Positions 8,924-64,000 of a stretch of 64,000 nucleotides of DNA are shown in pieces; the stretch's first letter is position 1; the number at the start of each line of letters is the position of its first letter. The position numbers and the translations under genes were made by a program. This DNA is from an uncultured Lewinella sp. GTDB taxonomy: Bacteria; Bacteroidota; Bacteroidia; Chitinophagales; Saprospiraceae. The notes beneath the pieces are model-generated. The model was given only the letters and a program-made list of their open reading frames with translations, made no database searches and had not been told where the DNA came from. The stretch covers positions 4,904 through 68,903 of the forward strand of contig CAJXPD010000008.1 of NCBI GenBank assembly GCA_913057785.1, read 5' to 3'.

Positions 8924-8928
8924 AAAGT

Positions 8929-9066: not shown

Positions 9067-9075
9067 TTCAGCGCT

Positions 9076-16798: not shown

Positions 16799-16808
16799 TA
16801 GCTAGATA

Positions 16809-44684: not shown

Positions 44685-44705
44685 TGTTGGTGGAAAACAC
44701 CAACA
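44685..44705. repeat. REP-like hairpin TGTTGGTG-GAAAA-CACCAACA
   Basis: Perfect 8-bp palindrome. A variant, GTTGGTC-AAAAA-GACCAAC, lies at 44607-44632. Confidence 0.7.
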
Positions 44706-44737: not shown

Positions 44738-44760
44738 ATGTTGGTGTTTTCCACCAACAT
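44738..44760. repeat. REP-like hairpin ATGTTGGTG-TTTTC-CACCAACAT (loop inverted relative to 44685)
   Basis: Perfect 9-bp palindrome. The tail CACCAACATTAAAGGCGAG is repeated as CACCAATATTAAAGGCGAG at 44793-44811. Confidence 0.7.
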
Positions 44761-44860
44761 TAAAGGCGAGATATCGGCTACCTTGGCGTATTCACCAATA
44801 TTAAAGGCGAGGCAGCGGTTACCTTTCCCTTCCAAATGCAATCAATGGAAAACAAAAATC

Positions 44861-48015: not shown

Positions 48016-48660
48016 ACTCAAAGGCTTTCAATAATGATGCCCTGGCTTTCCTGGTCAGGAGCCAATAAACTTACAGATGAAGACTTAGCTTCAGCAGCAG
48101 CGATTCCATTTATCCACGAGTGGATATCTAGAAATTAATGGGCAATAAATCAGGTACCTAGGTCTTCAGTTTTTCCATGCCATTAGATGCTTCCTATAGA
48201 ATCAATGCTTCGCTAGGCTAATAAATAGGGAATGCTGAAGAACCTGCAAAGAAGTCAATCCTGGATCACCTTTGTATACAGCTCATACCCGCTAAGGGGT
48301 AAAAGACAAGCTGCAGCCAGAGGTTGAAATGGCTTGACTCTAGTTGACTAAAAACTTGAGCAGATAATGGAAAATGGAATTTGTCCGAGTTGGACTTTGA
48401 TAATGGAAAGGAAATAAAATATGGATACAAATATAGGTGATCTCGAAAAGAGACGCAATCCCTATCGTACTTTTTGTATAGGTGTTATTTTCTCTATGTC
48501 CTTTAAGTGAATCTTTTTATGGGTAATTAAAGTGTTGAAAATCAATTATTTGTGAACGATTTGTTTAGTACTATATCTAGCGATAATTAATTTTTAATTG
48601 AATAAAGCTGTCACGATTGGTGTAGTTGGGAGATTATAAGAGTGGCTAAAGGAAAATAGC

Positions 48661-48674
48661 CAGATAATGGAAAG
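48661..48674 (+). repeat. CAGATAATGGAAAG motif copy
   Basis: Other plus-strand copies are at 48361-48373 and 48399-48410. Reverse-complement copies are at 62852-62863 and 62914-62927. Confidence 0.7.
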
Positions 48675-48726: not shown

Positions 48727-48914
48727 AACTACAGCTGTCAGGACATCGTCAATTCATAGTCTGTAACCCGAATTCATAAGATTACTGCAAATCAATAATC
48801 GCGATCAGCTAGGTCTGTTCGCATAGCTAAAACTATTGTCTTACACCAAGGGTAGGGGAGCGCGGATGAATAAGCTTATCTAGCCAACCCCTATCCCTTT
48901 TAACTACAACTCTA

Positions 48915-51900
48915 ATGAAGAGACTTTTATTAACCATGGCTCTCGGGCTAGGGTTGGGGCTTGTAGTAGGGTTTGCACAGCCTTATGCTGTCACTACTAA
49001 CATTCAGACTACTTCCTATAGTAAGTATCTGGACGATTATGCCCAACCCAACAGGGTGTTTGTGACCCTGTTGTCGACGGATTCAAGACCATCTTATCAA
49101 GCTTTTCTCCAAGTAGAAATAGCTGGCGATGGCTATAACTTGAAATCCAGACCCAACTTTATCCCTCCCCCCATTACCTTGTACAAGGACCAACCTATTA
49201 CACTTAGTGGCCTCTCCTTGGCGCCCTATTTAGATCCAAGCAATTTGGATTTTAATGGGATGTCCTTGGAGTCCTTTCTGTCTAGCGGAGGAAGGCTGCC
49301 GGATGGACCTATTACCATCTGTATCGAAGCCTATGACTTCAACCGAATAGGTTATCCACCGATTTCAAATAGGGCCTGTTCCTACGGGACCATTATGACC
49401 AATGCCCCACCGATAGTCACTGCTCCCATTGGCTATACACAAGCGGCCAATCCACAGAACTTTATGTTGAGTTGGCAGCCACAACATCTTGGTGCATTTC
49501 CGGTAGAGTACACAGTAGAGGTTTATCGAGATAATACAGGTTTTAGCCCTGATGTCACGGTTAACTCTACTGCTCCTGTTTTTACGACCAGGACGAATTT
49601 AACCACCTACAATTATTCTGCAATTGACCCGCTATTGATTAAGGGAGAGGATTATCTGATTCGGGTAAAAGCAGCTGATCTGTTGGGCGTTAATTACTTC
49701 GACAACGAGGGCTGGAGTGTCATTGAGTCTTTCCATTTTGGTGGAGAATGCCCTTCACCTGTAGCGGTCAGTTTTGGTGAAATCAGTGATACTTACCTCG
49801 AAGTTTTATGGCAGCTTGAAGAATCAGAAGGGGTGAATTACATTGAAGTGAGCATTGAAGATGAAAATGAAGAAATCATTAATCAAGCTCAACTATCAAG
49901 AGAAGATAGCCGATTTACATTTGAAGGACTAGAACCCGGAAGAGCTTACACGGTAACCGTTTGCACTGTTTGCGAAGGCGCAGGACAGACCTGTGTAGAT
50001 GTAGGTCCTATTTCAACGAAGGGAGAAGGAGAGTGCGAACCTCAGGTAATAGAATCCTTCAAGTTACAAGAATCCTTTCCTTTTTATGCCATCTTAGATT
50101 GGCCCCCAGTTTCTGGTGCGATGCAGTACGAAGTGCGTTACCGAGAAAGGGAAGGCGGAAGCTGGACTACATTTGCTGTAGCTGGCAACGAATCGCAAGT
50201 AAAAGTGGCGAATTTGATCCCTGGAACAACCTACGAGGCACAAATTCGAGTATTATGTTTTGAAGGAGAGCCCGGTCCTTGGTCTGAAACAGTTGTTTGG
50301 AATTCAGACTGTGCGGCACCAGATATTGTTTGGGTGGAAAGCTTCGATCATGAATCCGCGCTATTTGCTTGGTTTAGTTCGCCTTATGCCAAGAATTACC
50401 GTTTGCAGTATCGTCGCAAAGGAACCAATAGCTGGAGTAATGTCTATACTACGGAAAGTAGCAAGACGATTACCGGACTACAGGCCAGTACCACCTATGA
50501 ATATAGACTCAAGCTGAAATGTCTCGATAATAGCTGGTCTAGCTACTCGCCGATCTTTGAGTTTACTACCCTACAAGATTGTGATCCGATCAATGCTGAG
50601 GCTATACGATTCACCAATATTACGGCCTCTTCAGCAACGGTAACCGTACCGCATTCTGACCTCGTAGAATATTATTTGGTGAAGTATAAACCAGTAGGTG
50701 CTTCAAGCTATGAAGTCATACAATCAACGACCAGTGTGATTGAGCTCGAATTTCTAGAGCCCAATACTACCTATGAAGTGATCATTGCGAATGATTGTTA
50801 CGATAATTGGTCAGACTGGACTAGCCCACTCAATTTTACGACGCTTTGTGGCGCTTCAGACTTGGCTTGGGCAGAACAAATCACTGCCTTCACCGCAACT
50901 CTGTTGACCAACTCTATCAATGGTGCGGACCAATATCAATTTGAGTATAGACAGAAAGGAAGTAACGAATGGATTACCATGTCAGCCAGCACAGATTTGC
51001 ACGTTGACTTATCAGGCTTAGCAGATCTCACTACCTATGAAATTCGAGTACGATCTAAGTGTGGGGGTAGTTGGTCGGATCCTTCCGTTATTGCTGAATT
51101 CACAACGGGAGAAGATTGTTCAGCACCTTCTTCAATAACCGTATCCAATGAGGATCCTTCGGGCTTTGATTTAAGTTGGACCAACAACCCAAGAGTGGAC
51201 CGCTGGCAAGTGCACCTGAAAGCCCAAGACGGTTCTACTATATCCGGCTTAAAGATCCCCGGATTAGGCAATGAAATTCCTGGCGTAGATGGTGAAGGGT
51301 GGACCTTCTTTCACGTGCGGGAATCCGCTATCAACATCGATGGCTTAGCGGATAACACCACTTACGATATTCGGATCAGAGCTTTTTGCAGTGATGTGAT
51401 TCCATCGGATTTCAGTTCGACCTTTACCGGCACAACGCTGAGTAATTGCCAACCTCCAAACAACATCTGGTTCGACAATTTCAATGGCGAAAACATCACC
51501 ATCAATTGGACGCCAGAAACCTACAACAACCTTTGGGAAGTGGCCTACCGCCCAAAACCCAATGAAGGTGGCGACGGCCCCTGGACCAACCGAACCATCG
51601 AAGGTACCCCCAGCTTAACCCTAACCGGCCTACAACAAGGGCAGGACTATGAGTTCAAGATCAAGTCGAGCTGTAGCAACTTTGGCTGGACGGACTTCGG
51701 CCCAATTGGCAATTGGAATCATGGCCCCTGCGGCGCGCCTACCAATGTGACAGAGGATATCACCTCTTCTACTACCGTAAAATTGACTTGGACAGGCTCG
51801 GGTTTTGCTACCTATACGGTGCTCTATCGCCCTATGGGCGTCCCCGGCGCGCAGTACACCTCTGTCAACACCAACGCTACTAATATTGAACTCACCGGAT

Positions 51901-53084
51901 TACAGACTGGCACCATCTATGAGTACACGATTGCTGCCAATTGCTTCGGTGCTAACACTTCGTTTACATACGATGATGACTTCGAAATTGAGCGGGAATC
52001 TTTGGATAATGAGTTTTATGAGTGTGGGGTGGATACCGGGATTGTAGACCTAAGCAATCTTATGCCATTGTCGGATCTAATATCGGGAGATGAGGTAACT
52101 ATTGGAGATTTCAAGGTGATAATGAATGAGGTTCATGGATGGGGAGGTAATTTCAATGGTACGGGGTATATTCCTATCCCATATCTCAATATGGCACGGA
52201 TAAATGTGAAGTTTTCAGATATCATCGTCAACGATGAGTACATCGTAGTGGATGGAGAAATGGTGGTTACTGGCATTGGTGTGGCTCTTCTCGACGACAA
52301 AGCGGCTGCAATACTTGATGATATTCTAAATGTATTGAATACCGTGGATGATGTCTTGGAATTTGCAGAGGATATCATAACCTCAATTGAGGAAGCAACA
52401 GCCATGTTTGCCGAATATCTACCAGCGAATATCATTACGGATTTAGAAAATGCAAAACAAGCATTGGAGGCTGCAGTAACATCTGGAAACCCTTCAGATA
52501 TAACTGCGGCACAGGCTCAGTTGCAGACGGCTAGTGATAACTATAAGGCTGCACTTTCGCAGCTTATTCAGGATGCTTCAACGATCTTACAATTGGCTCT
52601 ACAGAAGTTGGAAACTGATTATCAGAATAATGTTACTACTCTGACCAATAATCTTAATACAAGTGAACAGGCTCTCCAGAACATCTTAGATGCACAGCAA
52701 ACTCAATTGTTTGGAACAACTTCGGTCCCCAGTATCCCTAATGAGGATATTAAGACGGACTTTATTGATATGGAGGAAGTTAAATGGAGTGACATGGATC
52801 CTACCGTTTTAAACCAAGCCTTCTATCAGAAATCTGAAGATTTTTTGGTCGATGGCAACCAATATCGACTTTGGCAAAAATTAGAAGAACTCAATACAGA
52901 ACTCCAGACTGATGATGATCTAACTAGTCTTATTGAACTGGTAAAGCTTGAGGATGTGGATATCATGAAACTTGTTGCTGATGGGGTGGCAAATGGAGAT
53001 ACCCATAATGTCATTTCCGATGCAGTTAAGCAAGAACTGATTGATAAAGTAAATATCATCTTGCTGAAAGCTTACGGTTATTAA
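48915..53084 (+). CDS. giant secreted protein: N-terminal domain, eight tandem Cys-bracketed Fn3-like modules, helical C-terminal region
   Basis: 1389 aa with signal peptide MKRLLLTMALGLGLGLVVGFAQP. About 90-aa repeats span aa 279-1036, each starting with C and carrying a W..Y..Y/EYR Fn3-like pattern. The C-terminal ~300 aa is coiled-coil-like (LENAKQALEAAV..). Confidence 0.8.
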   Translation: MKRLLLTMALGLGLGLVVGFAQPYAVTTNIQTTSYSKYLDDYAQPNRVFVTLLSTDSRPSYQAFLQVEIAGDGYNLKSRPNFIPPPITLYKDQPITLSGLSLAPYLDPSNLDFNGMSLESFLSSGGRLPDGPITICIEAYDFNRIGYPPISNRACSYGTIMTNAPPIVTAPIGYTQAANPQNFMLSWQPQHLGAFPVEYTVEVYRDNTGFSPDVTVNSTAPVFTTRTNLTTYNYSAIDPLLIKGEDYLIRVKAADLLGVNYFDNEGWSVIESFHFGGECPSPVAVSFGEISDTYLEVLWQLEESEGVNYIEVSIEDENEEIINQAQLSREDSRFTFEGLEPGRAYTVTVCTVCEGAGQTCVDVGPISTKGEGECEPQVIESFKLQESFPFYAILDWPPVSGAMQYEVRYREREGGSWTTFAVAGNESQVKVANLIPGTTYEAQIRVLCFEGEPGPWSETVVWNSDCAAPDIVWVESFDHESALFAWFSSPYAKNYRLQYRRKGTNSWSNVYTTESSKTITGLQASTTYEYRLKLKCLDNSWSSYSPIFEFTTLQDCDPINAEAIRFTNITASSATVTVPHSDLVEYYLVKYKPVGASSYEVIQSTTSVIELEFLEPNTTYEVIIANDCYDNWSDWTSPLNFTTLCGASDLAWAEQITAFTATLLTNSINGADQYQFEYRQKGSNEWITMSASTDLHVDLSGLADLTTYEIRVRSKCGGSWSDPSVIAEFTTGEDCSAPSSITVSNEDPSGFDLSWTNNPRVDRWQVHLKAQDGSTISGLKIPGLGNEIPGVDGEGWTFFHVRESAINIDGLADNTTYDIRIRAFCSDVIPSDFSSTFTGTTLSNCQPPNNIWFDNFNGENITINWTPETYNNLWEVAYRPKPNEGGDGPWTNRTIEGTPSLTLTGLQQGQDYEFKIKSSCSNFGWTDFGPIGNWNHGPCGAPTNVTEDITSSTTVKLTWTGSGFATYTVLYRPMGVPGAQYTSVNTNATNIELTGLQTGTIYEYTIAANCFGANTSFTYDDDFEIERESLDNEFYECGVDTGIVDLSNLMPLSDLISGDEVTIGDFKVIMNEVHGWGGNFNGTGYIPIPYLNMARINVKFSDIIVNDEYIVVDGEMVVTGIGVALLDDKAAAILDDILNVLNTVDDVLEFAEDIITSIEEATAMFAEYLPANIITDLENAKQALEAAVTSGNPSDITAAQAQLQTASDNYKAALSQLIQDASTILQLALQKLETDYQNNVTTLTNNLNTSEQALQNILDAQQTQLFGTTSVPSIPNEDIKTDFIDMEEVKWSDMDPTVLNQAFYQKSEDFLVDGNQYRLWQKLEELNTELQTDDDLTSLIELVKLEDVDIMKLVADGVANGDTHNVISDAVKQELIDKVNIILLKAYGY

Positions 53085-53102
53085 TCTTTCAAAAAACAAA
53101 CC

Positions 53103-56100
53103 ATGTATAAAATAAAAATAGGCTTACTGCTGCTAGTAGGCTTTCTCTCCCATGTCCTGAAAGCAGAGTCCAAGGAGCTAGATCTACTCGATATATTTCA
53201 AAATCAAGAAGAATTGATTGAGGAAGGGCAGAAGCAGTTCTTAGAACTACTGAAGTTTAATGCTGAGAATGAGCGTAGAGGTTGTCCTGAGGATAATATC
53301 TATGTTTTTAGTCTCGTCAGTTCAGACGACTGGTCGCAGTACGTTAAAGTGCCCAATACACCTGCCGAAGAGTATCTCGGTGATACAAAAGATGAGCTAA
53401 ACCAACGTCTTAAGGCCTTTAATACTAACCCCGATTTCAGCGATTTTGGAATGTATTTATGCTTGGTCACTGAATTATCCGCAAAAGTGTCATACGACTT
53501 TCCCCCAGGAAGCTTGGCTAATATCAAGGCTATGTATGAACGAAATGAGAAGGAGATACCTGGTTTTAGTAGCGCTGAATCTGCAGCGAGTATAGAAAAG
53601 CTAGAAGAACAGTGGGATAATATTATCAAGCAAGTTTTTGATGGTACTGAACAGCAACTGCAGAATGATTCAAATTTTGTCAGCTTCCAGCCGAAGCCTA
53701 ATCGAATGTACGTCACACAAACTTTGGTCAAGGCACAGCTTCAGGACCCCGAGGAGCAGGGTAGAGAAGTTAAGAAAGTAATTAATTCTGCTCGAATCCG
53801 CGGGTATTTTAAGCAACATTGGGACGAAATCTACAAGTATGAAAAGCGAATGCTCAAGACTAGAAGTGGAGAGCATTATAAGCTGGAGAATAGAATTTTA
53901 TCAGCCATTGAGTATGTAGAAGGAGGCATGGACTCTAATCCGGCTCCCAGTATGAACTTTAAGTTAGAGGGACAGACAAAAATTAAAGACGCTGCAAATC
54001 AAGCTGGTAACAATACTTACACTTCTTCAGATTTAGCGAATCAGAATCTATTCTTATTTGATTTTACTGGCATTTATGGTACTAATTCTCAAGTGGCGGT
54101 CGATGCTATAAATACCGTTTTGTCTGGCCAATTAGCCAAGAGTTCGACCAAACTAAAGGTTTTCATAACGGATTCAGCTGTTTCTCAGACTACTATCGAT
54201 ATGATCAAGAATATTAATATTCTTGATCCCGCCTATGAAAACTCTTTGATTCTCTGGTTGAATATCGACAACGATGCGGTAATAGAAACCTCTATTCGCG
54301 TCTCTCCTGACCTACAAAATGAAATTAATGCCCATTTAGATTGGGAACGATTCAATCAATTGTTGCAGGATGGCTCCTATGTCGATATGGCCTTGTTTAC
54401 AGCTAAACAAATCTTGGATATTAAGATTAAGGTCATCTATGGTATTTCAGAATTTGTACGCACAGTATTACAGGCAGGAATCATTCCTCCTAAGTACTAT
54501 GACATGACTGATATGAATCAGTATAATCCAATTCTGAAGGATATCATGACTTATGTGAATCCAGCGATGGCCTTTAGTGCAGTGGTAATGCAACCATTAT
54601 TGGATGAGTTTGGAGGTATGTACCCCGTCTTGCTAGGAGCTAATATCACGGACATCCAATTTGCCCTTTTTTGCGGTTTTTGGAATGGAATCTTGCTAGA
54701 GTTGGATGGCATTTTTGAAGTCATTTCCATGGTCGGGTACTTTGTGGATGAGAGAAAGAAGGCAGAAGTCGATCAAGTTATAGATGTATTTCAGAAGACC
54801 GACTTTCTGGACCTTGTTGAAAAGATGCTTAATGGTGCAATCACTGCACATACGGGACACCCTACTTTCGTGGCACATCAGATTGGGAAGGATATTATTA
54901 TGATCCTTACAATCGCAATTCCCGTTTCCAAGGTGGGGACCGTCGGAAAGCTAGCAAAGGTCACAAAGGTGATCAACGCTGTAGACAAACTGAATCCTCT
55001 TACACATGTTTTCGATGCCGCTGGCTTTATTTTAAAGAAGGGGACAGGGAAGGTAATTAAGGTCATGAAAGATGGTGTCAATGGAACCAAACTAGCCGAA
55101 TTGACCAAAGGCAGACTCAGGGTCTTTCAACAGCACCTGTACACTGGGGCACAGAGCTTTATCCAATTAACTGAAGCTATACCTGTTCCTCAAGTTGTTC
55201 TAGATACTGGTAATGGATTGATTGAAGCTGCCTCAATCGTTATGGTCAAGGTCAGTGATCCAGGAGGCACTTCTTCCTATTTCAGAAGGCTAGCAGACGA
55301 TGCAGGATTAGCAGCTACTAAGAATTTACTCAAAGGAAATTTTGATTTTGCTAAGCTATTTAAGAATGCTGAGGAGGCGGACTTGATAGCAGGGAAAATT
55401 GCGTCATTACCTTCTTCTAGCAAGCTCTATGATGTGGCCAATTTCTCTGGCCTAAAAGCTGCAATAGATGCTTTACCAGATGACTTGAAGAGAAAATTCT
55501 TCGAGGACTTGGCAGATATTGGAGAGAGTGCTGGAAATGCAGCAGGGAGTATATGGTTCGGAAGGCATCTAGATGATCTAGCTAGTAATCCAGATCTTGT
55601 AATTGCTTGGAAGGCTGCGAAAAAACAGGCCAGTTTAAGAACTAGTATTACCAGCTTAGAAAAAATTGATGTCGTTATCAAAAGTGGGAATATTCCCGTC
55701 AATAAACTTGAAGAAGCGCTAGATTCACATTTAGGAGATATTCTGGAAAATGCGAGCGATCTAAATAGAACTAGTATCCTCAATCGTCTGAACCTCCCAC
55801 ATGTTGACGGTAGTCATTTTCAGGAGATGGTTAATAGACTTCAGAAGTGGGATAAACTTACCGAAGACCTAATAAATCACCCTGAATGGTTCGACACTTT
55901 TGATGATATCCTGAATGAACCAGGAAAGTACTGGGATATCGTGGATGAAGCAGAACTTCCTAATAGTGCTGAATTATTAGCCTGGGGGCAAGGGCATTGG
56001 TGGAAGAACTTGCGGAAATTAGCCCAAGATTTTGAATCTGGAGCAGCTCTAACTAAATTTACCGGGAGTAGCCCCGATTTGAATCTCAATCTTACAGGTT

Positions 56101-56465
56101 TCGTTGAGCAAGTGACTCTAGAGGTTAATGGGATAAAGATTCGAGTCGATTTTATTGGTAAAGATGCCGCTGGTAAATTCCATTTGGGAGATGCAAAATT
56201 CTCTACCAAGAGCAAAGATTGGGTTGCAGATTGGCTAGATGCTTCAACAGATAATCAAAAACTGGTATACCCTTTGTTCGAACCTCCTGGAGGAGTGAAC
56301 AGCATTGTAGTAAAGGCTTCAGATCCCGATAAGTTAACTCAATTGCAGCAAATTCTAGGCCTAAGTAACAATAGTCCAATAGCATTTTCAAATACCAGTT
56401 TCCGAATTCTAGGTAGTGAAGCCAATCAACAGGCTGTAAAAACCGTAGTTACCTTAAAGAACTAG
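53103..56465 (+). CDS. large secreted protein with a C-terminal PD-(D/E)xK nuclease-like module (polymorphic-toxin-like)
   Basis: 1120 aa with signal peptide MYKIKIGLLLLVGFLSHVLKA and hydrophobic helices mid-protein. The C-terminal ..FVEQVTLEVNGIKIRVDFIGKDAAGKFHLGDAKFSTK.. gives E..D1016..D1030-A-K1032. Confidence 0.75.
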   Translation: MYKIKIGLLLLVGFLSHVLKAESKELDLLDIFQNQEELIEEGQKQFLELLKFNAENERRGCPEDNIYVFSLVSSDDWSQYVKVPNTPAEEYLGDTKDELNQRLKAFNTNPDFSDFGMYLCLVTELSAKVSYDFPPGSLANIKAMYERNEKEIPGFSSAESAASIEKLEEQWDNIIKQVFDGTEQQLQNDSNFVSFQPKPNRMYVTQTLVKAQLQDPEEQGREVKKVINSARIRGYFKQHWDEIYKYEKRMLKTRSGEHYKLENRILSAIEYVEGGMDSNPAPSMNFKLEGQTKIKDAANQAGNNTYTSSDLANQNLFLFDFTGIYGTNSQVAVDAINTVLSGQLAKSSTKLKVFITDSAVSQTTIDMIKNINILDPAYENSLILWLNIDNDAVIETSIRVSPDLQNEINAHLDWERFNQLLQDGSYVDMALFTAKQILDIKIKVIYGISEFVRTVLQAGIIPPKYYDMTDMNQYNPILKDIMTYVNPAMAFSAVVMQPLLDEFGGMYPVLLGANITDIQFALFCGFWNGILLELDGIFEVISMVGYFVDERKKAEVDQVIDVFQKTDFLDLVEKMLNGAITAHTGHPTFVAHQIGKDIIMILTIAIPVSKVGTVGKLAKVTKVINAVDKLNPLTHVFDAAGFILKKGTGKVIKVMKDGVNGTKLAELTKGRLRVFQQHLYTGAQSFIQLTEAIPVPQVVLDTGNGLIEAASIVMVKVSDPGGTSSYFRRLADDAGLAATKNLLKGNFDFAKLFKNAEEADLIAGKIASLPSSSKLYDVANFSGLKAAIDALPDDLKRKFFEDLADIGESAGNAAGSIWFGRHLDDLASNPDLVIAWKAAKKQASLRTSITSLEKIDVVIKSGNIPVNKLEEALDSHLGDILENASDLNRTSILNRLNLPHVDGSHFQEMVNRLQKWDKLTEDLINHPEWFDTFDDILNEPGKYWDIVDEAELPNSAELLAWGQGHWWKNLRKLAQDFESGAALTKFTGSSPDLNLNLTGFVEQVTLEVNGIKIRVDFIGKDAAGKFHLGDAKFSTKSKDWVADWLDASTDNQKLVYPLFEPPGGVNSIVVKASDPDKLTQLQQILGLSNNSPIAFSNTSFRILGSEANQQAVKTVVTLKN

Positions 56466-56479
56466 AAATAGATTTTGGT

Positions 56480-57181
56480 ATGAATAAGAATGAAGTCAAG
56501 AAATTACGAGAAAAAGTACTATTGAGTTTGGAATCCAGGTTTCATGAATACGGATTTACTCTAAAAGTAAAACCAGCAACTTTCGAGAATTCGGAAGCAT
56601 TCATTCACTGGGGACCAACTCGAACTTTTCCAGATGCTTTGATTTTTCGACCTTGGATTAGAATAGAAAACAAGGAAATAAAAAAGATCCTTAAAACTCT
56701 ATTCCCTTCTGAATTCGCTTTCAATACTATCGTTAGAACCCAGGGAAGCTCCTTCGCTCATGAGATGAACGTTTGGGATATGGATAATTCCCCATTCAAT
56801 TTTCAGGATGAAAATGGTAGTTCCTATTATTATCGCATAGAACATGATACGGATCTAGATGTAATCTGCGAAGATCATTTTCGCTTTATGAGTTTAGTTG
56901 GTTTTCCCTTCATAGATAAGCTCAACAGCTTAGATGGAGTAAATGCCTATATCAATAATCGAGTTTTGGCAAAGGAAATCGGTTCTTTTCAACGAGAAGA
57001 AGATCTACTCCAAGTTAGAAAGTTCTTCGATAAGCGAGAGGTATTAAGTGGGGCTATTGCAGCTCATTTGTTGGAGAAGGATAATCTAGAGGAATTACTT
57101 AGACGATATCGTATTCTGTTTGAAGGCAATTCCTATATCTTGACGGATCTGGATAAAGTTATCCAGCACTTTTCTAATTAG
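56480..57181 (+). CDS. cytoplasmic 233-aa protein, candidate immunity protein
   Basis: Starts 14 nt after the upstream stop, with no signal peptide. The N-terminus (..KKLREKVLLSLESRFHEYGFTLKVKPATFEN..) resembles small immunity-protein architectures. Confidence 0.45.
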   Translation: MNKNEVKKLREKVLLSLESRFHEYGFTLKVKPATFENSEAFIHWGPTRTFPDALIFRPWIRIENKEIKKILKTLFPSEFAFNTIVRTQGSSFAHEMNVWDMDNSPFNFQDENGSSYYYRIEHDTDLDVICEDHFRFMSLVGFPFIDKLNSLDGVNAYINNRVLAKEIGSFQREEDLLQVRKFFDKREVLSGAIAAHLLEKDNLEELLRRYRILFEGNSYILTDLDKVIQHFSN

Positions 57182-57318
57182 TGATTGAGTAGAAAATTTT
57201 TGACTTCATTTGACTCTTTAGTTCTCTTTTCCCCTTTTGGTAAGAGAAAATAAACCGAAAGCCAGCGATACGCAAAAGCTTGGTTTTCAATATCACTGGA
57301 TGATCTAAAGTTTAAACC

Positions 57319-60300
57319 ATGTTCAAAAAATATATACTATTTCTCCTCTTGGGGAGCTGGGCGAGCTTTGCCTATGCCAGCCCTCCAACCAGTGAGGATC
57401 GCGATGGCAAGCGAAAAGAAATGCCCACATTACCTCGCCTAGCTATGGATGAGGTGGAGTCTTTAACGACTAAAAAATTGGAGGTGGCAGCAACGCCACC
57501 TCCGGCTTCCGCCGCTGCTCCGCAGTCTGGCTATCATTTTGAGTCCATTGATGCACAGTTGCAGCATATCATCGAGACTAAGACTTTGATGTTGCCCTTT
57601 GATGAAGCACCACAGGCTGCTGTTTTAAACGATGATATGGCGGATATCTTTGTCAATATTGGCACCGGAGATTACAGTGCTAAGGTGAAAAGGGCTAGAG
57701 AAGCGATCAACAAAGCCATTGATATTGGAAACTTTATCAGTCAGTTGACGGGGGAAGACCTGGTGGATTTGCCATTGGTGTTGCAGCAGACTATAAGTAA
57801 TGTTACCTATAGCTTAACCATCAATAAAATGACTTTGAAGCCGACCCATACGGAGTTAGAGATTTTTCTTGGAATCGATATTCCTAATCAGAACTTCTCA
57901 CTCTACTTTGGCTCCCCTAACATTAAGTTTTCGTATGATGGTGGATTTGAATTACCAGCAACTTTAGCCTTGTATTCAGCAGTAGCCATTCCGATCAAGG
58001 ATAAAAAATCGGCTTTGGTCTTACAGCCCTATCATGAGGATCCAACTACAGGTTTACCCTTGGGTACTTATGTGACTATAGACTGTGATGGGTTTAAGGA
58101 GATGGCTGTGGAGGCAGATCTAATCTTCTCCCGCGATTGGATCGTACCGGTTGATAACAATGGCGATGTATTACCTACGGGTCGAGTAACGGGGAGCTTC
58201 CAAACCATCCTAACCGATTGGAATGACCTACTAATAGACAATCTTACGCTACCCAATTTTGCCTTGAAGTCCTTTGATGATATTGCATTCAACATCACAA
58301 ATGCTGTATTTGACTTTAGTGATTTCCGCAATGGGCAAAATGTGAATTTTCCTCCTTTGTATGCCCAGCAGAATCTTTTGCCAGGTAATGCTAGCTTATG
58401 GAGAGGTGTTTACTTTGAGAATGTCGAGATTGTATTGCCCAAGCAGTTTACCTTGAAGAATTGCAATGCCAGCAATAATTGCCGGGTTAAATTGGGCGCT
58501 AATGATTTATTGATTGATCCGAATGGAGTGAGCGCAGAATTCTATGCCCAGAATATCTTTGGGATCAATGATGGAGAGATGGACAAGTGGCGATGGTCTT
58601 TGGATGAAATCAGTATCAACGTAGTAGCTAGTGACGTGACGGGCTTCGGTTTCGAGGGAGAGATTGGGGTGCCGATTGCCAAGGAGACAACGCCCTTTGG
58701 CTATACGGCCTACTTTGACTTTGGAATGCAGGAGTATAACTTTTCTATCCTGAATCCTTCCAACATGGAGTTCCCGCTATGGCAGGCTGGGCAGGTGACC
58801 ATCGCCGCAGGTTCCAAACTGGAAATCACGGCGACACCTACAAAGTTTGAGCCAGTAGCGATATTGAATGGTAGTGTGGATATCAATGCCAAGTTTGATT
58901 TGGCGGATAATGAAGAGATGGTTGAGTTGGTAGGCTTGCAGTTTCAGAAGTTGAAACTACAGACACAAGCGCCTTACATCGGTTTGGATACCGGTGGGTC
59001 CATGAGCTTGAGCTCTGGCTTGAATGTGGCTAACTTCCCTGTATCTATTGCCAATCCATCCATTCATGGTACGGCCGGGGGAGGTGTCGAATTGCGGCTA
59101 GGTGTAAACATAAATTTGATGTCTCAAACAAATGGTGGGTTTGCAGCAACTACCGATGTGAGTCTGTTTGGAGATATGGACCCCAGTCAAGCCTTACATC
59201 TTTGGAAGTATAGCTCGATGCAAATTAATAGTGCTAGTATATCCATCTCTTTACCTAAGCTGGAGTTGGATGGCCAGATTGATATCTTCCGAAACGATCC
59301 CGATTATGGCAATGGTTTTCATGGCACTTTGAGCGTAGATGTATTAGATGGAAAATTTGAGATGGATGCCGAAACTTACTTCGGTAATGTGAATAATTAT
59401 CGGTATTGGTACTTTGATGTGAAAGTGCAATCCAACGCTTTGAGTATCCCCCTATATCCTCCGGTAGTAATCAATGGATTTGGTGGAGGTGCCTATCACC
59501 ATATGAAGATGTCCAGCTTTACGGCTAATCCAGACCCGGATAAGACGGGCGTGAAGTATGTACCTTCTCAATCAGTAGCGCTGGGATTAAAGGCTTCGGT
59601 ATTGCTCTCCTCGGTAGAAGGTACGCTTGATGGAGAGGCTACGCTGGAAATGGTCTTCGGTTCGGGAATGTCTCTACAGGATATTGTCTTTTATGGCAAG
59701 GCAGAGCTAGCCACGGATAACATTGGTCAGGGACTCTTGGACAATCGGATTTCCAAGTTTTTAATGAATCAACAGCAGACCAGAGCACAAGACGATGCTG
59801 AATCACAAAACCCATTAGGCAAGATTAGCGCTGCGCTCTTTATGCGCATGAATTTCACCGCTGGCTTTGAACTGCAAGGTACCTTCAATACTTACCTAAA
59901 TGCGGGTAATGGAATTATTGTGGGTAGTGGTTCGGCTGATCTCTTGCTATCGACACCGCAAAATAAATGGCACTTATACATCGGCGGATACTCTGACGGG
60001 TCTATTACCGTACAACAATTGAGCAATACGGTTACGCTTTATCCCGTATCAGTCTCCATTCAATACGAGAATGATCCAAACGATCCGAGTGACGATATTC
60101 AAGTTAGTGCAAGTGCCTACTTCTTAACGGGGAATGATATACCGGGGCCTCCACCTTTGGATCCGCAGGCAGCAGCGGTCTTTGGAGTCAATAATAGTAA
60201 TCGAGGTGGGCTCGGAGGTACCCCAGCCCTCGGCACAGGCTTTGCCTTTGGTGCTGCGGCCAATTTCAACTTTACCTATACCAAGACACCAAATAAGCGA

Positions 60301-60621
60301 TATGTGAATCTCTCGGGAGGAGTCGGCTTCGATATTTCACTATTGAAATATGCCAATGGCACTACCTGCTCTTTGAGTAATACCAGCCCACATGGCTTGA
60401 AGCATTGGAGAGCCAATGGTAACCTTTGGACTTTCATGAATGCAAGTGGAAAATGGAAGGTAATCGCTACCATTCCTTTTAATGTGAGTTTAGGGGTATT
60501 GCTACAGGCAGATGTACCAAAGCCATCCTACTTCAACGGTCAAGTTGCCCTACAACTCCCATTTGGAATCAATGTACCATTTGGTGTAAGTGTCGGTCAA
60601 CAATGTGGTACCGTATACTAA
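57319..60621 (+). CDS. large secreted protein of unknown function (no domain recognised)
   Basis: 1100 aa with signal peptide MFKKYILFLLLGSWASFAYA. Gly/Asn/Ser-rich composition, which I read as beta-rich. C-terminal ..GVSVGQQCGTVY. Confidence 0.75.
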   Translation: MFKKYILFLLLGSWASFAYASPPTSEDRDGKRKEMPTLPRLAMDEVESLTTKKLEVAATPPPASAAAPQSGYHFESIDAQLQHIIETKTLMLPFDEAPQAAVLNDDMADIFVNIGTGDYSAKVKRAREAINKAIDIGNFISQLTGEDLVDLPLVLQQTISNVTYSLTINKMTLKPTHTELEIFLGIDIPNQNFSLYFGSPNIKFSYDGGFELPATLALYSAVAIPIKDKKSALVLQPYHEDPTTGLPLGTYVTIDCDGFKEMAVEADLIFSRDWIVPVDNNGDVLPTGRVTGSFQTILTDWNDLLIDNLTLPNFALKSFDDIAFNITNAVFDFSDFRNGQNVNFPPLYAQQNLLPGNASLWRGVYFENVEIVLPKQFTLKNCNASNNCRVKLGANDLLIDPNGVSAEFYAQNIFGINDGEMDKWRWSLDEISINVVASDVTGFGFEGEIGVPIAKETTPFGYTAYFDFGMQEYNFSILNPSNMEFPLWQAGQVTIAAGSKLEITATPTKFEPVAILNGSVDINAKFDLADNEEMVELVGLQFQKLKLQTQAPYIGLDTGGSMSLSSGLNVANFPVSIANPSIHGTAGGGVELRLGVNINLMSQTNGGFAATTDVSLFGDMDPSQALHLWKYSSMQINSASISISLPKLELDGQIDIFRNDPDYGNGFHGTLSVDVLDGKFEMDAETYFGNVNNYRYWYFDVKVQSNALSIPLYPPVVINGFGGGAYHHMKMSSFTANPDPDKTGVKYVPSQSVALGLKASVLLSSVEGTLDGEATLEMVFGSGMSLQDIVFYGKAELATDNIGQGLLDNRISKFLMNQQQTRAQDDAESQNPLGKISAALFMRMNFTAGFELQGTFNTYLNAGNGIIVGSGSADLLLSTPQNKWHLYIGGYSDGSITVQQLSNTVTLYPVSVSIQYENDPNDPSDDIQVSASAYFLTGNDIPGPPPLDPQAAAVFGVNNSNRGGLGGTPALGTGFAFGAAANFNFTYTKTPNKRYVNLSGGVGFDISLLKYANGTTCSLSNTSPHGLKHWRANGNLWTFMNASGKWKVIATIPFNVSLGVLLQADVPKPSYFNGQVALQLPFGINVPFGVSVGQQCGTVY

Positions 60622-60638
60622 AGCACCTGTAATTGTGG

Positions 60639-60669
60639 TTTTCCGTTGCTCAAATTGGGCAGCGGAAAA
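60639..60669 (+). other. stem-loop in the spacer before the last operon gene
   Basis: TTTTCCGTTGC (60639-60649) pairs with GCAGCGGAAAA (60659-60669): 11 bp with one G-T. No T-tract. Confidence 0.4.
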
Positions 60670-60724
60670 TCTACCGAACACAAAGAAAATCAACCCTTAT
60701 TTTGACAATCGTAATTTTCTTATC

Positions 60725-62791
60725 ATGAGAAATTTATTTGTATTCCTTTTCGTGCTATGCTTCACCTATGGGCATGCTAACAATGAAGCTAAACCAGATT
60801 CCAATCTACTACAGACCTATTATAAAATTGAGGATGGCCAACTCCTGCTTCGTTGGAATCCTGCCAATCCCTACCTTTGGCTGGAAGGCCGAAAGAATGG
60901 GTATTTAATCGAAAAATATAGATATCCGGCAGATGGAGGTAGGCCCGTGTTGGTCTCCACAAGCACTGAGACGATCCTTCCCTGGCCCGCAAATAATTGG
61001 CTATCTGAAACTTCCACGGAAACTCGCCGAAATGCACATATTCTGTTTCATTATGACCAGATGCATCCAGATTCTATCGAACAGGATCTTCCCATAGCTG
61101 AATATGGCGAGGCAGGCCGATTGAATGTTTTTCATAGACTGTCCAACTATATCATGAACGCTGATTTTGGTGCAGTAGAGTTGGCTGGCTTAGGGATCAG
61201 AGATGGAGAACTTGAGCCAAATGCCAAGTATTTATATGTAGTGAAACTAGCCTCAAACCCTAATGAGATTAACGCTAGCGTAAAAGTGGATATGAGTAGC
61301 TATCAAGCACCAATTACGCCAAAGCTGCAGGCCGAATTTCTATCTAGCCGTGTGGAATTGCAATGGCGTACCTACGAGTTTCGCGACTTCTACTATGGCT
61401 ACTTTTTAGAACGATCGGAAGATGGGGTGAATTTTGAGCTGGTCAATGAAACGCCTTTCGTTAACGTTTATGACACAACAACTCAGGAGGCGCTGAAGTC
61501 CTTTTACTATACCGATAGCTTGGCACAAAATGACAAAACCTATTGGTATCGACTTAGAGGTGCGGATTACCTCGGAGGAGTAAGTGAGAAGTACACGGAA
61601 GTCAGTGGCATGGGTTACGAAGAGATACCGCATAGCCCCATGATTCGAGAAGCTATCCAGACGGATAGCAACTACGCTATTATCAAATGGAAATTTCCGG
61701 AGGCTTTTGAAGCTAGAGTAAAAGAATTTCAGATTTTTCATTCTGATTCCTTGGATGGTATATTTTCTCCGGTCGTAGAAGGGATCAACCCTACCGAAAG
61801 AGAAGTTGCGGTGAGAATGCGCTACAATACGAATGCCTATCGGGTGGTCTTGGTGCCCTACGGTGGACCGAAGAAAGCATCCTTCCCTGCCCTGGTAATG
61901 GCTTGGGATGAAGAACCTCCAGCCATGCCGATTGGTTTTACAGGAACGATTGATAGCCTAGGTATTGTACGTTTAGCCTGGGATCCCAATACTGAGGAAG
62001 ACCTCGATGGCTATAAGGTATATAAGTCTTATTTCAAAGAAGAAGAATTTTCTGGTATTACCAGTAAACCTATTCAAGTCACCAATTTCGTGGACACAGT
62101 AGATATGGTTGTCGGTAACGAATGGGTGTATTATACGATCCAGGCAGTAGATGAGCGAAATAATCGATCTGATTTCACGCAAATATTGGAATTGAAGAAA
62201 AAGGATATGTATCCTCCAGTAGAACCCCATATTCACAAGGTGGATAAATCTACTGGACAGATTGAGATCCATTGGTACAATAGCAGTAGTCCAGATGTAG
62301 AAAGCCATCGCTTGTTTAGAAAAGTTTTGGGTGAGGAGGAAAGCTGGACAATGATCAAGGAATACGGATTGGAGGATAATGTGGAATCCTACGTGGATAC
62401 AAATGTAGTTCGCAAAAAAGTATATGCTTATACATTGGTGGCTATCGATGATGATGGATTGGAATCGGAGCCAGCACAAGCAGCTACCGCAAAGGTTATG
62501 GATTATGGCCTTCGAGATGCTATTGAGGTGACTGAAGTCAATCTGATGGAAGATCAAAAGCAAGTAGAAATCAAGTGGAATTATCCCTTGAATGCCAGTG
62601 AATTTTGGGTGTATAAAGGATCTGATAAGGAGCGAACTAGTTTGATGAAGGTGGTATCTGCTGAAGAAATGGAGTTAATTGACCAGAACTTGCAAAAGGG
62701 CCGAACCTATCATTATTATTTGAAGGCCTTTTTCGAGGACGGATCTTTCTCCCCCTTTACCGAAAAGATAGAGGTGCAACTAGACGATTAG
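60725..62791 (+). CDS. secreted multi-Fn3-like repeat protein
   Basis: 688 aa from ATG 60725 (MRNLFVFLFVLCFTYGHA signal peptide; track start 60590 rejected). About six ~100-aa repeats with a W-x..Y-x-[VIL]-[YF]..Y.Y Fn3-like pattern (LRWNP.., LQWRT.., IKWKF.., LAWDP.., IHWYN.., IKWNY..). Confidence 0.8.
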   Translation: MRNLFVFLFVLCFTYGHANNEAKPDSNLLQTYYKIEDGQLLLRWNPANPYLWLEGRKNGYLIEKYRYPADGGRPVLVSTSTETILPWPANNWLSETSTETRRNAHILFHYDQMHPDSIEQDLPIAEYGEAGRLNVFHRLSNYIMNADFGAVELAGLGIRDGELEPNAKYLYVVKLASNPNEINASVKVDMSSYQAPITPKLQAEFLSSRVELQWRTYEFRDFYYGYFLERSEDGVNFELVNETPFVNVYDTTTQEALKSFYYTDSLAQNDKTYWYRLRGADYLGGVSEKYTEVSGMGYEEIPHSPMIREAIQTDSNYAIIKWKFPEAFEARVKEFQIFHSDSLDGIFSPVVEGINPTEREVAVRMRYNTNAYRVVLVPYGGPKKASFPALVMAWDEEPPAMPIGFTGTIDSLGIVRLAWDPNTEEDLDGYKVYKSYFKEEEFSGITSKPIQVTNFVDTVDMVVGNEWVYYTIQAVDERNNRSDFTQILELKKKDMYPPVEPHIHKVDKSTGQIEIHWYNSSSPDVESHRLFRKVLGEEESWTMIKEYGLEDNVESYVDTNVVRKKVYAYTLVAIDDDGLESEPAQAATAKVMDYGLRDAIEVTEVNLMEDQKQVEIKWNYPLNASEFWVYKGSDKERTSLMKVVSAEEMELIDQNLQKGRTYHYYLKAFFEDGSFSPFTEKIEVQLDD

Positions 62792-62913
62792 TATTTGCTG
62801 GGAGTTCTCTATTTGCACTTATTTGAGAATATCCTTACTTTTGAATCAAATCTTTCCATTATCATTTAGTTCACATTTATTGAAGTGATCTCTGGCGTCT
62901 CGGAGGTCCCCAA

Positions 62914-62927
62914 CTTTCCATTATCTG
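62914..62927 (-). repeat. CAGATAATGGAAAG motif copy (reverse complement)
   Basis: CTTTCCATTATCTG on the plus strand, an exact inverted match to 48661-48674. A second inverted copy, CTTTCCATTATC, is at 62852-62863. Confidence 0.7.
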
Positions 62928-63152: not shown

Positions 63153-64000
63153 ATGAAAAGATTGCTCATTGCGATTGTTGCTGTGCTATGTTATGGTTTG
63201 GCCTATGGGAAATTGGCAGATCCAACTTATTTCAAATGTCCACTTACCATTAGCGGTATTGATAGGCAAGATCCCACCGATTGCAATATCAATAATGGGG
63301 TGATTGAAATAGAGGTGTCCGGAGGGAATGGTTCGTATGAGTACAGTGTAAATGATGGCGCTTCCTGGCAGAACAGTAATATATTTCAGGGGCTGCCTGC
63401 TGGGACCTTTCTGATCAAAGTCAGACAGACAGATGGGGCTTGCGAAAGTTCAGGATCAGAAGTAGTAGAATTGCAAGGACCCGATTCCCCACGCTTTATT
63501 GCCGTAAACTCAACGCCACCTACGGATTGTGAGGTAGCAGATGGAACCATTACCATAGAAGCTAGAGGGGGGACCGGACCGTATGGCTACAGTATAGATG
63601 GGGGAATTACATGGGTAGGTACTAAAGTTTTTCAAGCTTTGCCCTCAGGTACTTATCAGGCGATGGTAAGAAATGCAGATGGAACATGTGAGACGCCTTA
63701 TATTTTTCCGATTGAACTAATTGGTCCTGAACCGCCACAGATAACTGCGGTAGATTTCAGTCCCATTAGTGACTGTGATCGGGAAGACGCAAGTATTCGC
63801 ATTCAAACTGAAAATTCGGGTGATTTTCTTTATAGCATTGATGGCCGTGCTTCCTGGCAACAGGGGGCGGCTTTCAATGATTTAGCGGCAGGAAGGTTTG
63901 ATATCTGGGTAAGCAATGGTGATGGAAGTTGCCCGATTAATTATGGTCCTCTGGTGATTCCAGATATCGATGCACCGATTATTGAAGAGGTGCAGGTGAG
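63153..64000 (+). CDS. SprB-repeat cell-surface protein, 5' part (continues past the window)
   Basis: Open to the window edge, so absent from the ORF track. MKRLLIAIVAVLCYGLAYG signal peptide, then at least three ~83-aa repeats of the type DC..(N/D)G.I.I...GG.G.Y.YS.DGG.(S/T)W....F..L..G.Y...V....G.C. Confidence 0.75.
   Translation, partial: MKRLLIAIVAVLCYGLAYGKLADPTYFKCPLTISGIDRQDPTDCNINNGVIEIEVSGGNGSYEYSVNDGASWQNSNIFQGLPAGTFLIKVRQTDGACESSGSEVVELQGPDSPRFIAVNSTPPTDCEVADGTITIEARGGTGPYGYSIDGGITWVGTKVFQALPSGTYQAMVRNADGTCETPYIFPIELIGPEPPQITAVDFSPISDCDREDASIRIQTENSGDFLYSIDGRASWQQGAAFNDLAAGRFDIWVSNGDGSCPINYGPLVIPDIDAPIIEEVQV

Follow-up and report, generated by a model that had tools for sequence, protein, structure and literature searches.

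A predicted split TANFOR-class toxin and a conserved adhesin-associated gene pair at a composite locus of an uncultured Lewinella sp.

Introduction

TANFOR-domain polymorphic toxins of Bacteroidetes have been described previously (Jana, Salomon & Bosis 2020, Life Sci Alliance, PMC7073777). In this class, the gene next after the TANFOR gene sometimes encodes the toxin, payloads commonly include a PD-(D/E)xK DNase, and the neighbourhoods are rich in genes for SprB, Fn3, PKD, and T9SS-CTD proteins (PMC7073777). For BaCT/BaCTic, the three immunity proteins in the supplement of that study are 326–358 aa (PMC7073777). Here, we analysed a 64,000-nt stretch of DNA from an uncultured Lewinella sp. (the window), in which five co-directional genes (ORF1–ORF5) lie upstream of a SprB-repeat adhesin gene. 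ORF1 shares with TANFOR toxins the order of Sec signal, TANFOR-type N-domain, and Fn3, and in the locus, likewise, an immunity gene comes after a variable C-terminal toxin. What sets the locus apart is an N-domain that has diverged so far that TIGR02542 does not match it directly, an unusually long eight-Fn3 stalk, and a toxin gene that carries a signal peptide of its own and encodes a body of ca. 830 aa. The toxin module and the 233-aa immunity protein belong to rare families. The conserved unannotated neighbours ORF4 (O4), ORF5 (O5), and W6 find no mention in PMC7073777.

Two other systems offer points of comparison. The sprB operon of Flavobacterium johnsoniae was reportedly described by Rhodes et al. 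in 2011 as remF-remG-Fjoh_0982-sprC-sprD-sprB-sprF. As in that operon, conserved envelope-protein genes directly precede the gene for a giant SprB-repeat T9SS substrate, and several paralogous loci occur per genome. Unlike in that operon, O4 and O5 have no sequence or profile similarity to SprC and SprD, the adhesin has a type A CTD, as judged from its ortholog, and the window showed no gene of the PorP/SprF family.

The locus also resembles CdiB/CdiA/CdiI and other split or adaptor-loaded polymorphic toxins, of which the MIX/FIX T6SS effectors cited in PMC7073777 are an example, in that a long stalk presents a swappable C-terminal nuclease whose cognate immunity gene lies directly downstream. 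Nested cassette replacement, an orphan toxin/immunity module elsewhere (L090), and a predicted outer-membrane barrel gene (W6) adjoining the toxin gene are further likenesses to CDI. Unlike in CDI and T6SS, no TPS domain, FHA repeats, VENN motif, POTRA/ShlB, Rhs, PAAR, or T6SS marker was matched, and the resemblance is one of function and not of homology.

Results

A previous reading of the locus from its sequence alone (the sequence-only reading) had described five genes separated by 18, 14, 137, and 103 nt, with signal peptides on the four large products and none on ORF3. The coordinates (Table 1) and translations agreed with this description, the signal peptides being MKRLLLTMALGLGLGLVVGFAQ (ORF1), MYKIKIGLLLLVGFLSHVLKA (ORF2), MFKKYILFLLLGSWASFAYA (ORF4), and MRNLFVFLFVLCFTYGHA (ORF5). 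An alternative GTG start of ORF5 at 60590 would give 733 aa. In Pfam and NCBIfam searches, ORF2, ORF3, and ORF4 matched no family at E ≤ 0.1, and none of ORF1–ORF5 matched T9SS CTD, TpsB, Rhs, T6SS, or ATPase families, as had also been noted before. The bracketing repeated motif was likewise found: CTTTCCATTATC occurs six times in the window versus 0.61 expected, and its copies between W6 and ORF1 are conserved in the related locus L006, those upstream of the adhesin gene in L004, L006, and L007. The claim that the locus lies in a long accessory stretch did not hold, as the EF-G/SecY ribosomal region takes up the window's first 27 kb, the adjoining genes are ordinary chromosomal ones, and variation among relatives is confined to the larger cassette in Table 1.

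Table 1 Features of the locus (nucleotide positions in the window; aa, residues of the product).
Feature	Position	Strand	Description
W6	46294–48015	-	573 aa; predicted outer-membrane beta-barrel-like; divergent from ORF1
CTTTCCATTATC, three copies	48363–48674	-	W6/ORF1 intergenic region
ORF1	48915–53084	+	1389 aa
ORF1 N-region	aa 1–285		signal peptide, divergent TANFOR-like N-domain, Fn3-like domain
ORF1 Fn3 stalk	aa 286–1010		8 Fn3 domains
ORF1 post-Fn3 module	aa ~1010–1150		conserved
ORF1 tail	aa 1041–1389		within swap cassette; variable, helical
Variable cassette (versus L004)	52035–57314	+	ORF1 tail, ORF2, ORF3; blastn breakpoints
ORF2	53103–56465	+	1120 aa
ORF2 conserved body	aa ~30–860		~830 aa; two hydrophobic helices, aa 530–548 and 597–615 (hydropathy)
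ORF2-CT toxin module	55593–56465	+	aa 831–1120 (290 aa); mobile, PD-(D/E)xK-like
Nested smaller cassette (versus L006)	55593–57314	+	ORF2-CT, ORF3; blastn breakpoints
ORF3	56480–57181	+	233 aa
ORF4 (O4)	57319–60621	+	1100 aa
ORF5 (O5)	60725–62791	+	688 aa from ATG
CTTTCCATTATC, two copies	62852–62925	+	upstream of adhesin gene
SprB-repeat adhesin gene, 5' part	63155–64000	+	cut by window end

Domain and homology searches indicate that ORF1 is a TANFOR-like carrier with an eight-Fn3 stalk. A Pfam search returned eight fn3 stretches (7.6e-57), and the N-domain had homologs in 40 loci (E as low as 7e-40; 27–34% identity). TIGR02542 was matched by 16 of the 24 aligned N-domain homologs (best 3.6e-12). 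Since ORF1's own N-domain gave no match to TIGR02542 even at E ≤ 10 and no homolog reached the NCBIfam curated cut-off of 67 bits, membership in the TANFOR class is assigned via transitive homology. Among the long fused ORF1 homologs, some have PT-HINT (2.9e-14) and others Endonuclea_NS_2 (7.6e-17), and a gene for ca. 235 aa comes after each. ORF1–ORF3 fall in this published class, and the view that the system cannot be assigned is thus not retained for them.

ORF2 is predicted to be a separately encoded toxin with its own Sec signal. Its body is common to about ten proteins with other C-termini (representatives search), and aa 320–680 match internal regions of the TANFOR-positive proteins P0342 and P0366. 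In L004 and L006, carrier and toxin are likewise encoded by two genes, the second of which has a signal peptide, and the split gene order also occurs in L003 and L051. The nuclease-like end seen in the sequence-only reading was supported by putative catalytic residues (D1016, D1030, and K1032), by the alpha-beta-beta-beta-alpha-beta order of an AF2 model (pLDDT 87), and by Foldseek, whose top matches were mostly PD-(D/E)xK nucleases, with a best E of only 2.7e-3 and a TM of ca. 0.2. In an alignment of eight sequences, D1016 and K1032 were invariant and position 1030 was D or E. The ORF2-CT family is small (eight word-indexed matches), and the module also ends otherwise unrelated proteins, in some cases after PT-HINT. 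Fold and motif support a nuclease-like module, which would act as a nuclease and be toxic.

ORF3 is predicted to be a cytoplasmic immunity protein co-inherited with the toxin module. In L090, an ORF3 homolog (40% identity, 3e-61) directly follows a toxin-module homolog (60% identity), and relatives with a different toxin end carry a different gene at the ORF3 position. The two cassettes share their right boundary (57314/57315), 4 nt before ORF4; their flanks align at 85–87% identity with L004 and 83–84% with L006, and blastn detected no alignment to these loci inside the cassettes. These breakpoints show that cassettes have been exchanged among close relatives. ORF2 is modular. The ORF1 tail and ORF2 co-vary, with 97% and 91% identity, respectively, in L006, versus 39% and essentially no relationship in L004. 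The joint swapping and the gene order in L090 uphold the proposed toxin/immunity pair.

ORF4, a conserved putative envelope protein, has at least 261 homologs, and at least 493 confirmed Bacteroidota genome stretches contain the ORF4–ORF5 pair. The AF2 model of ORF4 (pLDDT 77, pTM 0.49, ca. 55 strands) suggests an all-beta protein; in Foldseek, this model matched large outer-membrane barrels, but at TM ≤ 0.2 only. ORF5 is weakly Fn3-like, in that its homologs bear Fn3 annotations, one of them exceeding the fn3 threshold, while ORF5 itself has no direct Pfam match; the description of two Fn3-built proteins therefore stands for ORF1 and only weakly for ORF5. An O5 homolog directly follows the O4 homolog in 78 of 83 loci, and a SprB-family gene is next after O5 in 62 of 73. 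The truncated product at the window end is 53–57% identical to the start of its orthologs in L004, L006, and L007. In the L004 ortholog (1980 aa), SprB and BNR repeats and a type A T9SS CTD (TIGR04183) were found, which confirms the SprB-like gene reported downstream. We propose from these data that the adhesin is a type-A-CTD substrate of the T9SS, with ORF4 and ORF5 as conserved partners in the envelope. Of 59 complete loci, 36 have a TANFOR gene no more than 10 kb from O4 (uncorrected for phylogeny). Since the other 23 of the 59 loci have no TANFOR gene at this distance, O4–O5 clearly function without a toxin nearby.

W6 has a signal peptide and ends in ...TYGLNF; the ends of other family members (...GYNYSF) resemble an OMP beta-signal. 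No relative was found in Pfam, NCBIfam, or PDB, and hhalign indicated no relationship to PorP/SprF or ORF4. W6 occurs in 17 of the 59 complete loci, 16 of which have a TANFOR gene (Fisher p = 9e-4, no phylogeny correction). This makes W6 a candidate for the outer-membrane partner of TANFOR toxins.

Discussion

The five genes form two modules and not a single one, because ORF4–ORF5 lack an upstream toxin gene in many genomes and a recombination boundary lies just before ORF4; the five-gene operon is to be revised in this sense. We consider it likely that the locus is a composite of a TANFOR-class split toxin (ORF1–ORF3, probably with W6) and an unnamed, widespread adhesin module (ORF4–ORF5 and the SprB-repeat gene). 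That the modules are merely independent neighbours is less likely, though a real possibility. ORF4–ORF5, perhaps with W6, would then be dedicated to the SprB-like adhesin alone, to its biogenesis, anchoring, or movement, and the toxin would be exported otherwise and lie nearby through co-regulation or a shared general T9SS. The O4–O5–SprB loci devoid of a TANFOR gene, the variable position of this gene (upstream of O4 or downstream of the adhesin), and the cassette boundary exactly before ORF4 are in line with such independence. However, in four classes (Saprospiria, Cytophagia, Chitinophagia, and Flavobacteriia) the linkage has survived rearrangement, with the TANFOR gene on either side of O4; where a genome has two O4 loci, each is often accompanied by a TANFOR gene (L031/L066, L035/L036, and L039/L042); and W6 tracks the toxin gene and not O4. 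A single undescribed delivery apparatus made of all five genes, outside known systems, is improbable, and for ORF1–ORF3 the family assignment largely refutes it: they fit the published TANFOR class, including its split form and SprB/T9SS neighbourhood. Also against it, ORF2 and ORF3 are replaceable cassettes and not fixed parts, and ORF4–ORF5 occur also without toxins. What speaks for it is that ORF4, ORF5, and W6 have no family, solved relative, or name and that the toxin proteins carry no known export signal.

It is very unlikely that ORF2-CT, rather than being an antibacterial toxin, acts on extracellular DNA as a secreted or surface nuclease, or is a binding domain with no enzymatic activity, with ORF3 possibly unrelated. 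The weak fold match and the small family would allow this, but the module swaps jointly with the downstream gene, is co-inherited with an ORF3 homolog, follows a pretoxin PT-HINT domain elsewhere, and sits where bona fide nuclease toxin domains sit in fused homologs. Least probable of all is that ORF4 and ORF5 are the gliding accessory proteins SprC and SprD or their paralogs in a sprB-type operon, even though the order of two genes and then a SprB-like gene resembles sprC-sprD-sprB and O4 homologs (ca. 1540 aa) are near the size of SprD (1537 aa). In a sprB operon (L089), retrieved with published sprD-deletion primers that it matches exactly, SprC is a 489-aa protein with Ig and CHU_C domains and SprD carries a PorP/SprF domain at its N-terminus (1.9e-58). 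ORF4 and ORF5 gave no blastp match to these proteins at 1e-5, and hhalign of the O4 profile with SprD gave a probability of 0.6%. The alternative suggestion that the genes encode accessory proteins for the downstream adhesin agrees with the synteny of ORF4–ORF5, which are not the known SprC/SprD.

For the composite locus, a Fn3-stalked device for contact-dependent antagonism, as had been hypothesised, is supported in kind and plausible. Carrier and toxin would cross the inner membrane via Sec, and the two proteins may pair via the tail of ORF1 and the N-region of ORF2. We infer that their arrival at the surface could be aided by the co-localised envelope proteins, with a possible export role of ORF4, ORF5, or W6, and/or by the T9SS; since no component carries a T9SS CTD, the T9SS route has no sequence support. 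The nuclease would be delivered to neighbouring bacteria upon contact, and ORF3 would neutralise the ORF2-CT module in the producer and its kin. The locus supplies three candidate apparatus genes (ORF4, ORF5, and W6), and the ORF4–ORF5 pair may help explain how TANFOR toxins exit from the cell.

Two modules in the five-gene block

The positions and lengths of the five ORFs and the gaps between them (18, 14, 137, and 103 nt) agreed with the sequence-only reading, and the translations carried signal peptides on ORF1, ORF2, ORF4, and ORF5 and none on ORF3, as that reading had described; the hydropathy peak of the ORF1 signal is at aa 2–23. Two of the proteins had been said to be built of Fn3 modules. 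This holds for ORF1, which gave eight Pfam fn3 matches (7.6e-57), whereas ORF5 was weakly Fn3-like. At E ≤ 0.1, neither Pfam nor NCBIfam gave a family for ORF2, ORF3, or ORF4. The proteins derive from Saprospiraceae MAGs. The reported lack of T9SS C-terminal domain (CTD), TpsB, Rhs, T6SS, and ATPase families in the five proteins was also borne out by the family searches: Por_Secre_tail (TIGR04183/PF18962) and the CHU_C/type B CTD were absent from ORF1, ORF2, ORF4, and ORF5 at E ≤ 0.1, and neither the five proteins nor W6, the product of the OMP-like gene divergent from ORF1, had a Pfam or NCBIfam match to TPS, FHA, VENN, POTRA/ShlB, YD repeats, or PAAR/VgrG/MIX.

The genes had been taken for a single operon, within a long accessory stretch, and for a system that could not be assigned to a known one, and these three claims were not supported. 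The block consists of two modules, ORF1–ORF3 and ORF4–ORF5, with a swap border 4 nt before ORF4. EF-G and SecY are encoded in the first 27 kb of the window, and the neighbouring genes are ordinary ones apart from an IS200-like ORF (Y1_Tnp, 5.6e-6), which has a perfect 21-nt inverted repeat across its start; a 33-nt direct repeat lies at 44752 and 44793. ORF1–ORF3 fall in the described TANFOR class of Bacteroidota polymorphic toxins by transitive homology.

Features of the window and of two compared contigs
Feature	Positions	Strand	Description
IS200/Y1-transposase-like ORF	44738–45379		
Inverted repeat	44685–44705 / 44739–44759		21 nt
Direct repeat	44752 and 44793		33 nt
W6	46294–48015	-	OMP-like gene
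CTTTCCATTATC	16805–16816		one copy
CTTTCCATTATC	48363–48674	-	three copies
CTTTCCATTATC	62852–62925	+	two copies
ORF1	48915–53084	+	putative carrier
ORF2	53103–56465	+	putative toxin
ORF3	56480–57181	+	predicted immunity protein
ORF4	57319–60621	+	adhesin-linked
ORF5	60725–62791	+	adhesin-linked
ORF5 extension	60590–60724	+	from in-frame GTG at 60590, +45 aa, overlaps ORF4 end
SprB-repeat adhesin gene	from 63155	+	cut by window end
L089 SprC	within 3126–9208		489 aa; Ig_7 and weak, sub-threshold CHU_C (type B CTD)
L089 SprD	within 3126–9208		1537 aa; N-terminal full PorP/SprF domain (TIGR03519, 1.9e-58); followed by SprB
L090 array	259–10332		356-aa gene, stand-alone toxin-module copy with signal peptide (336 aa), ORF3 homolog (236 aa), three small genes; then 678-aa homolog of ORF4 N-terminal half, SprB/Por_Secre_tail gene

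ORF1 and the TANFOR class

Jana, Salomon and Bosis (2020) defined the TANFOR class with a criterion of RPS-BLAST E ≤ 1e-7 over at least 90 aa, and left the export route of these toxins open (PMC7073777). In their account the toxin can also be the product of the gene that follows the TANFOR gene. They gave the name BaCT to a PD-(D/E)xK DNase payload and found TANFOR neighbourhoods to be enriched in SprB, Fn3, PKD, and Por_Secre_tail domains (PMC7073777). Later work on TANFOR toxins was not found in the literature searched.

The N-terminal 295 aa of ORF1 gave no NCBIfam match at E ≤ 10, and thus none to the TANFOR model TIGR02542; whole ORF1 gave no match to this model at E ≤ 0.1. The N-domain shares 27–34% identity over ca. 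285 aa with 23 homologs (tblastn E down to 7e-40). TIGR02542 was matched at E ≤ 0.01 by the N-domains of 16 of the 24 aligned homologs, the best at 3.6e-12 and none at the curated 67-bit cut-off; the match of the related locus L028 (3e-10) covered model positions 4–139 of 145. Since most of the homologs match the model and the window copy itself does not, ORF1 is assigned to the TANFOR class by transitive homology.

Of the 83 loci compared, 40 have counterparts of ORF1 aa 1–285 and of the module that follows its Fn3 array, in most cases without the long array itself. Many of the homologs are proteins of 1500–2800 aa with recognised toxin parts at the end; in L050 this is Endonuclea_NS_2 (7.6e-17), and in L028 an AHH-like motif stands behind a PT-HINT pretoxin domain (2.9e-14). 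A gene of ca. 220–240 aa lies downstream of the fused homolog in L028, L050, L069, L070, L078, and L081. Midway along the fused toxins of L028, L050, and L081 there is also an HExxH motif of zincin type (HELGHG.F.L.H.W), which may be a releasing peptidase that was lost in the split form; a zinc peptidase of this type was rejected for the window toxin, as neither ORF1 nor ORF2 has the motif. Of the 21 cysteines in ORF1, many lie close to Fn3 repeat borders, a pattern that points to modules stabilised by disulfide bonds and to an oxidising compartment.

ORF2 as a putative separated toxin gene with its predicted immunity gene

An exhaustive HMMER search gave 99 relatives of ORF2. Residues 30–860 are common to ca. 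10 proteins that diverge thereafter, and the last ca. 290 aa occur alone in proteins of 230–370 aa or form the C-terminal end of proteins that are otherwise unrelated; in P0365, one of the relatives, the ORF2-type toxin module is placed after a PT-HINT domain. ORF2 residues 320–680 match the interior of two TANFOR-positive proteins (P0342 and P0366). ORF2 thus corresponds to the distal portion of the fused TANFOR toxins, here encoded separately and equipped with a signal peptide. The split between carrier and toxin is also present in L003, L004, L006, and L051, and is not an assembly artefact.

The toxin module (ORF2 aa 831–1120) had only eight word-indexed homologs. In the alignment of the module no variation was found at D1016 and K1032, and D or E stands at position 1030. 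The AF2 model of the module (pLDDT 87) shows the order alpha-beta-beta-beta-alpha-beta, as in PD-(D/E)xK nucleases, and its Foldseek matches were mostly Exo5, Card1, AdnA, Cas4, and restriction enzymes (best E only 2.7e-3). From these features we infer a nuclease activity of the ORF2 C-terminal module. BaCT has an invariant (D/E)xK in a PD-(D/E)xK core; the ORF2 module shows a D...(D/E)xK motif and a fitting order of secondary-structure elements.

ORF3 starts 14 nt past the end of ORF2. L090, a metagenome contig with what looks like an orphan toxin/immunity array, carries a 60%-identical copy of the toxin module followed directly by a 40%-identical ORF3 homolog (3e-61). ORF3 is the predicted cognate immunity protein of the module; the toxin/immunity reading of this gene pair is thus upheld by the L090 arrangement and by module swapping. 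With 233 aa, ORF3 differs in size from three immunity proteins of 326–358 aa (BaCTic) in the Jana 2020 supplement (PMC7073777).

Nested cassette swapping

Nucleotide homology to L004 (85–87%) extends over 48765–52034 and returns at 57315, and homology to L006 extends up to 55592 and returns at the same position. The exchanged part of ORF2 is aa 831–1120 in L006 and the entire protein in L004. The variable unit hence takes one of two forms, the ORF1 tail with ORF2 and ORF3 or the ORF2 end with ORF3. Its right border is always 4 nt before ORF4, and the replacement genes behind the toxin encode PQQ-like beta-propellers of 345–356 aa. The identities of the ORF1 tail and the ORF2 body were 97% and 91% in L006, and in L004 the tail was 39% identical and the body essentially unrelated. 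Since the tail co-varies with the ORF2 body, there is indirect evidence that the ORF1 tail and ORF2 may pair.

ORF4 and ORF5 accompany a SprB-like adhesin

At least 261 ORF4 homologs were found in Saprospiria, Cytophagia, Chitinophagia, Flavobacteriia, and Bacteroidales MAGs, all of them "hypothetical" and none with a Pfam domain. A genome scan for ORF4 confirmed 493 stretches, from which 80 loci were kept, and ORFs were called and clustered in 83 loci. An ORF5 homolog lies directly behind the ORF4 homolog in 78 of the 83, and a SprB-family gene lies behind the ORF5 homolog in 62 of 73 cases. With the initial parts of its orthologs from L004, L006, and L007, the gene behind window ORF5 shares 53–57% identity; the L004 ortholog (1980 aa) has BNR as well as SprB repeats, together with TIGR04183, a type A T9SS domain. 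Of ORF1, ORF2, ORF4, ORF5, and this adhesin ortholog, only the last has a T9SS CTD. The ATG start of ORF5 was preferred over the in-frame GTG because the homologs begin at the signal peptide; the ATG-started sequence is absent from the protein collection, and therefore public gene calls use another start.

Because the gene order resembles sprC-sprD-sprB, ORF4 and ORF5 were compared with SprC and SprD. The published sprD-deletion primers matched three metagenome contigs exactly, and one of these, L089, has the operon; this exact scan superseded peptide matches to primer translations, which were misleading. SprC and SprD of L089 had no blastp match to the ORF4 and ORF5 families at 1e-5, neither ORF4 nor ORF5 has a PorP/SprF, Ig-like, or CHU_C domain, and the ORF4 profile, aligned to SprD with hhalign, gave a probability of 0.6%. 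The S. grandis ortholog table, with weak E-values for SprC and SprD, is in keeping with no relation to ORF4 or ORF5, and "SprD" does not occur among the source names of ORF5 homologs. An assignment to known gliding accessories, which the sequence-only reading had named as an example of a refuting result, was itself refuted for ORF4 and ORF5 by this lack of similarity to SprC and SprD. Both proteins are adhesin-linked and uncharacterised, with no name in the literature searched. The AF2 model of ORF4 (66 sequences; pLDDT 77, pTM 0.49) is all-beta with ca. 55 long strands. Foldseek pointed to large outer-membrane barrels (E 2e-5 to 1e-3), with LptD, TonB-dependent transporters, ushers, and SlpA among the matches. 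With superpositions at TM 0.10–0.20 and rmsd ca. 30 Å, we assign no fold to ORF4.

W6, TANFOR linkage, and a shared motif

W6 starts with a signal peptide and bears a signature of OMP type at its C-terminus, where family members end in ...GYNYSF; it matched no known family. It was rejected as a PorP/SprF relative (hhalign probability 0.8%), and comparison with ORF4 revealed no relation. Searches of the PDB by sequence and profile with the TANFOR N-domain, ORF2, ORF4, ORF5, and W6 gave nothing or generic Fn3 matches only.

Linkage was counted in the 59 loci with full 10-kb flanks. A TANFOR gene is present in 36 of these 59 loci, a short way upstream of ORF4 or a short way downstream of the adhesin. 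W6 is present in 17 of them, 16 of which have a TANFOR gene (p = 9e-4, with loci treated as independent of phylogeny).

The motif that was noted as bracketing the block is real: the window holds six copies of the 12-nt CTTTCCATTATC, where 0.61 would be expected. Each cluster lies 240–650 nt upstream of, and in the direction of, W6 or the SprB-like gene, and L004, L006, and L007 have the motif at equivalent positions; a shared regulator may bind there. Scans for sigma-70 promoters and terminators, with models that do not cover Bacteroidota promoters, gave counts at or below shuffle expectation.

Discussion

Taken together, the window and ca. 80 relatives show toxin genes in association with a SprB-like T9SS adhesin and with three envelope proteins that are conserved but lack annotation, namely the large all-beta ORF4 family, its weakly Fn3-like partner ORF5, and the OMP-like W6. 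The linkage to TANFOR genes suggests that ORF4, ORF5, and W6 may take part in the display or export of the toxin, which has no CTD of its own. A bolder proposal, which we regard as rather unlikely, is that the three make up an outer-membrane apparatus that TANFOR toxins have so far lacked, namely a dedicated translocation-and-display module that would mount the carrier-toxin pair on or next to the T9SS-secreted SprB-like filament. If no envelope protein matters for export, the locus is one more polymorphic-toxin locus.

The nested swap cassettes give exact module borders for work on carrier-cargo pairing and toxin-immunity specificity, and the domain make-up of SprC and SprD in L089 is useful when genes are named "SprC/SprD" by synteny. 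The ORF4, ORF5, and W6 families are candidates for knock-out in tractable carriers such as Flavobacterium, Chitinophaga, and Tenacibaculum. If the proposed apparatus exists, the locus would encode a Bacteroidota-specific device for contact-dependent killing that is coupled to an adhesin.
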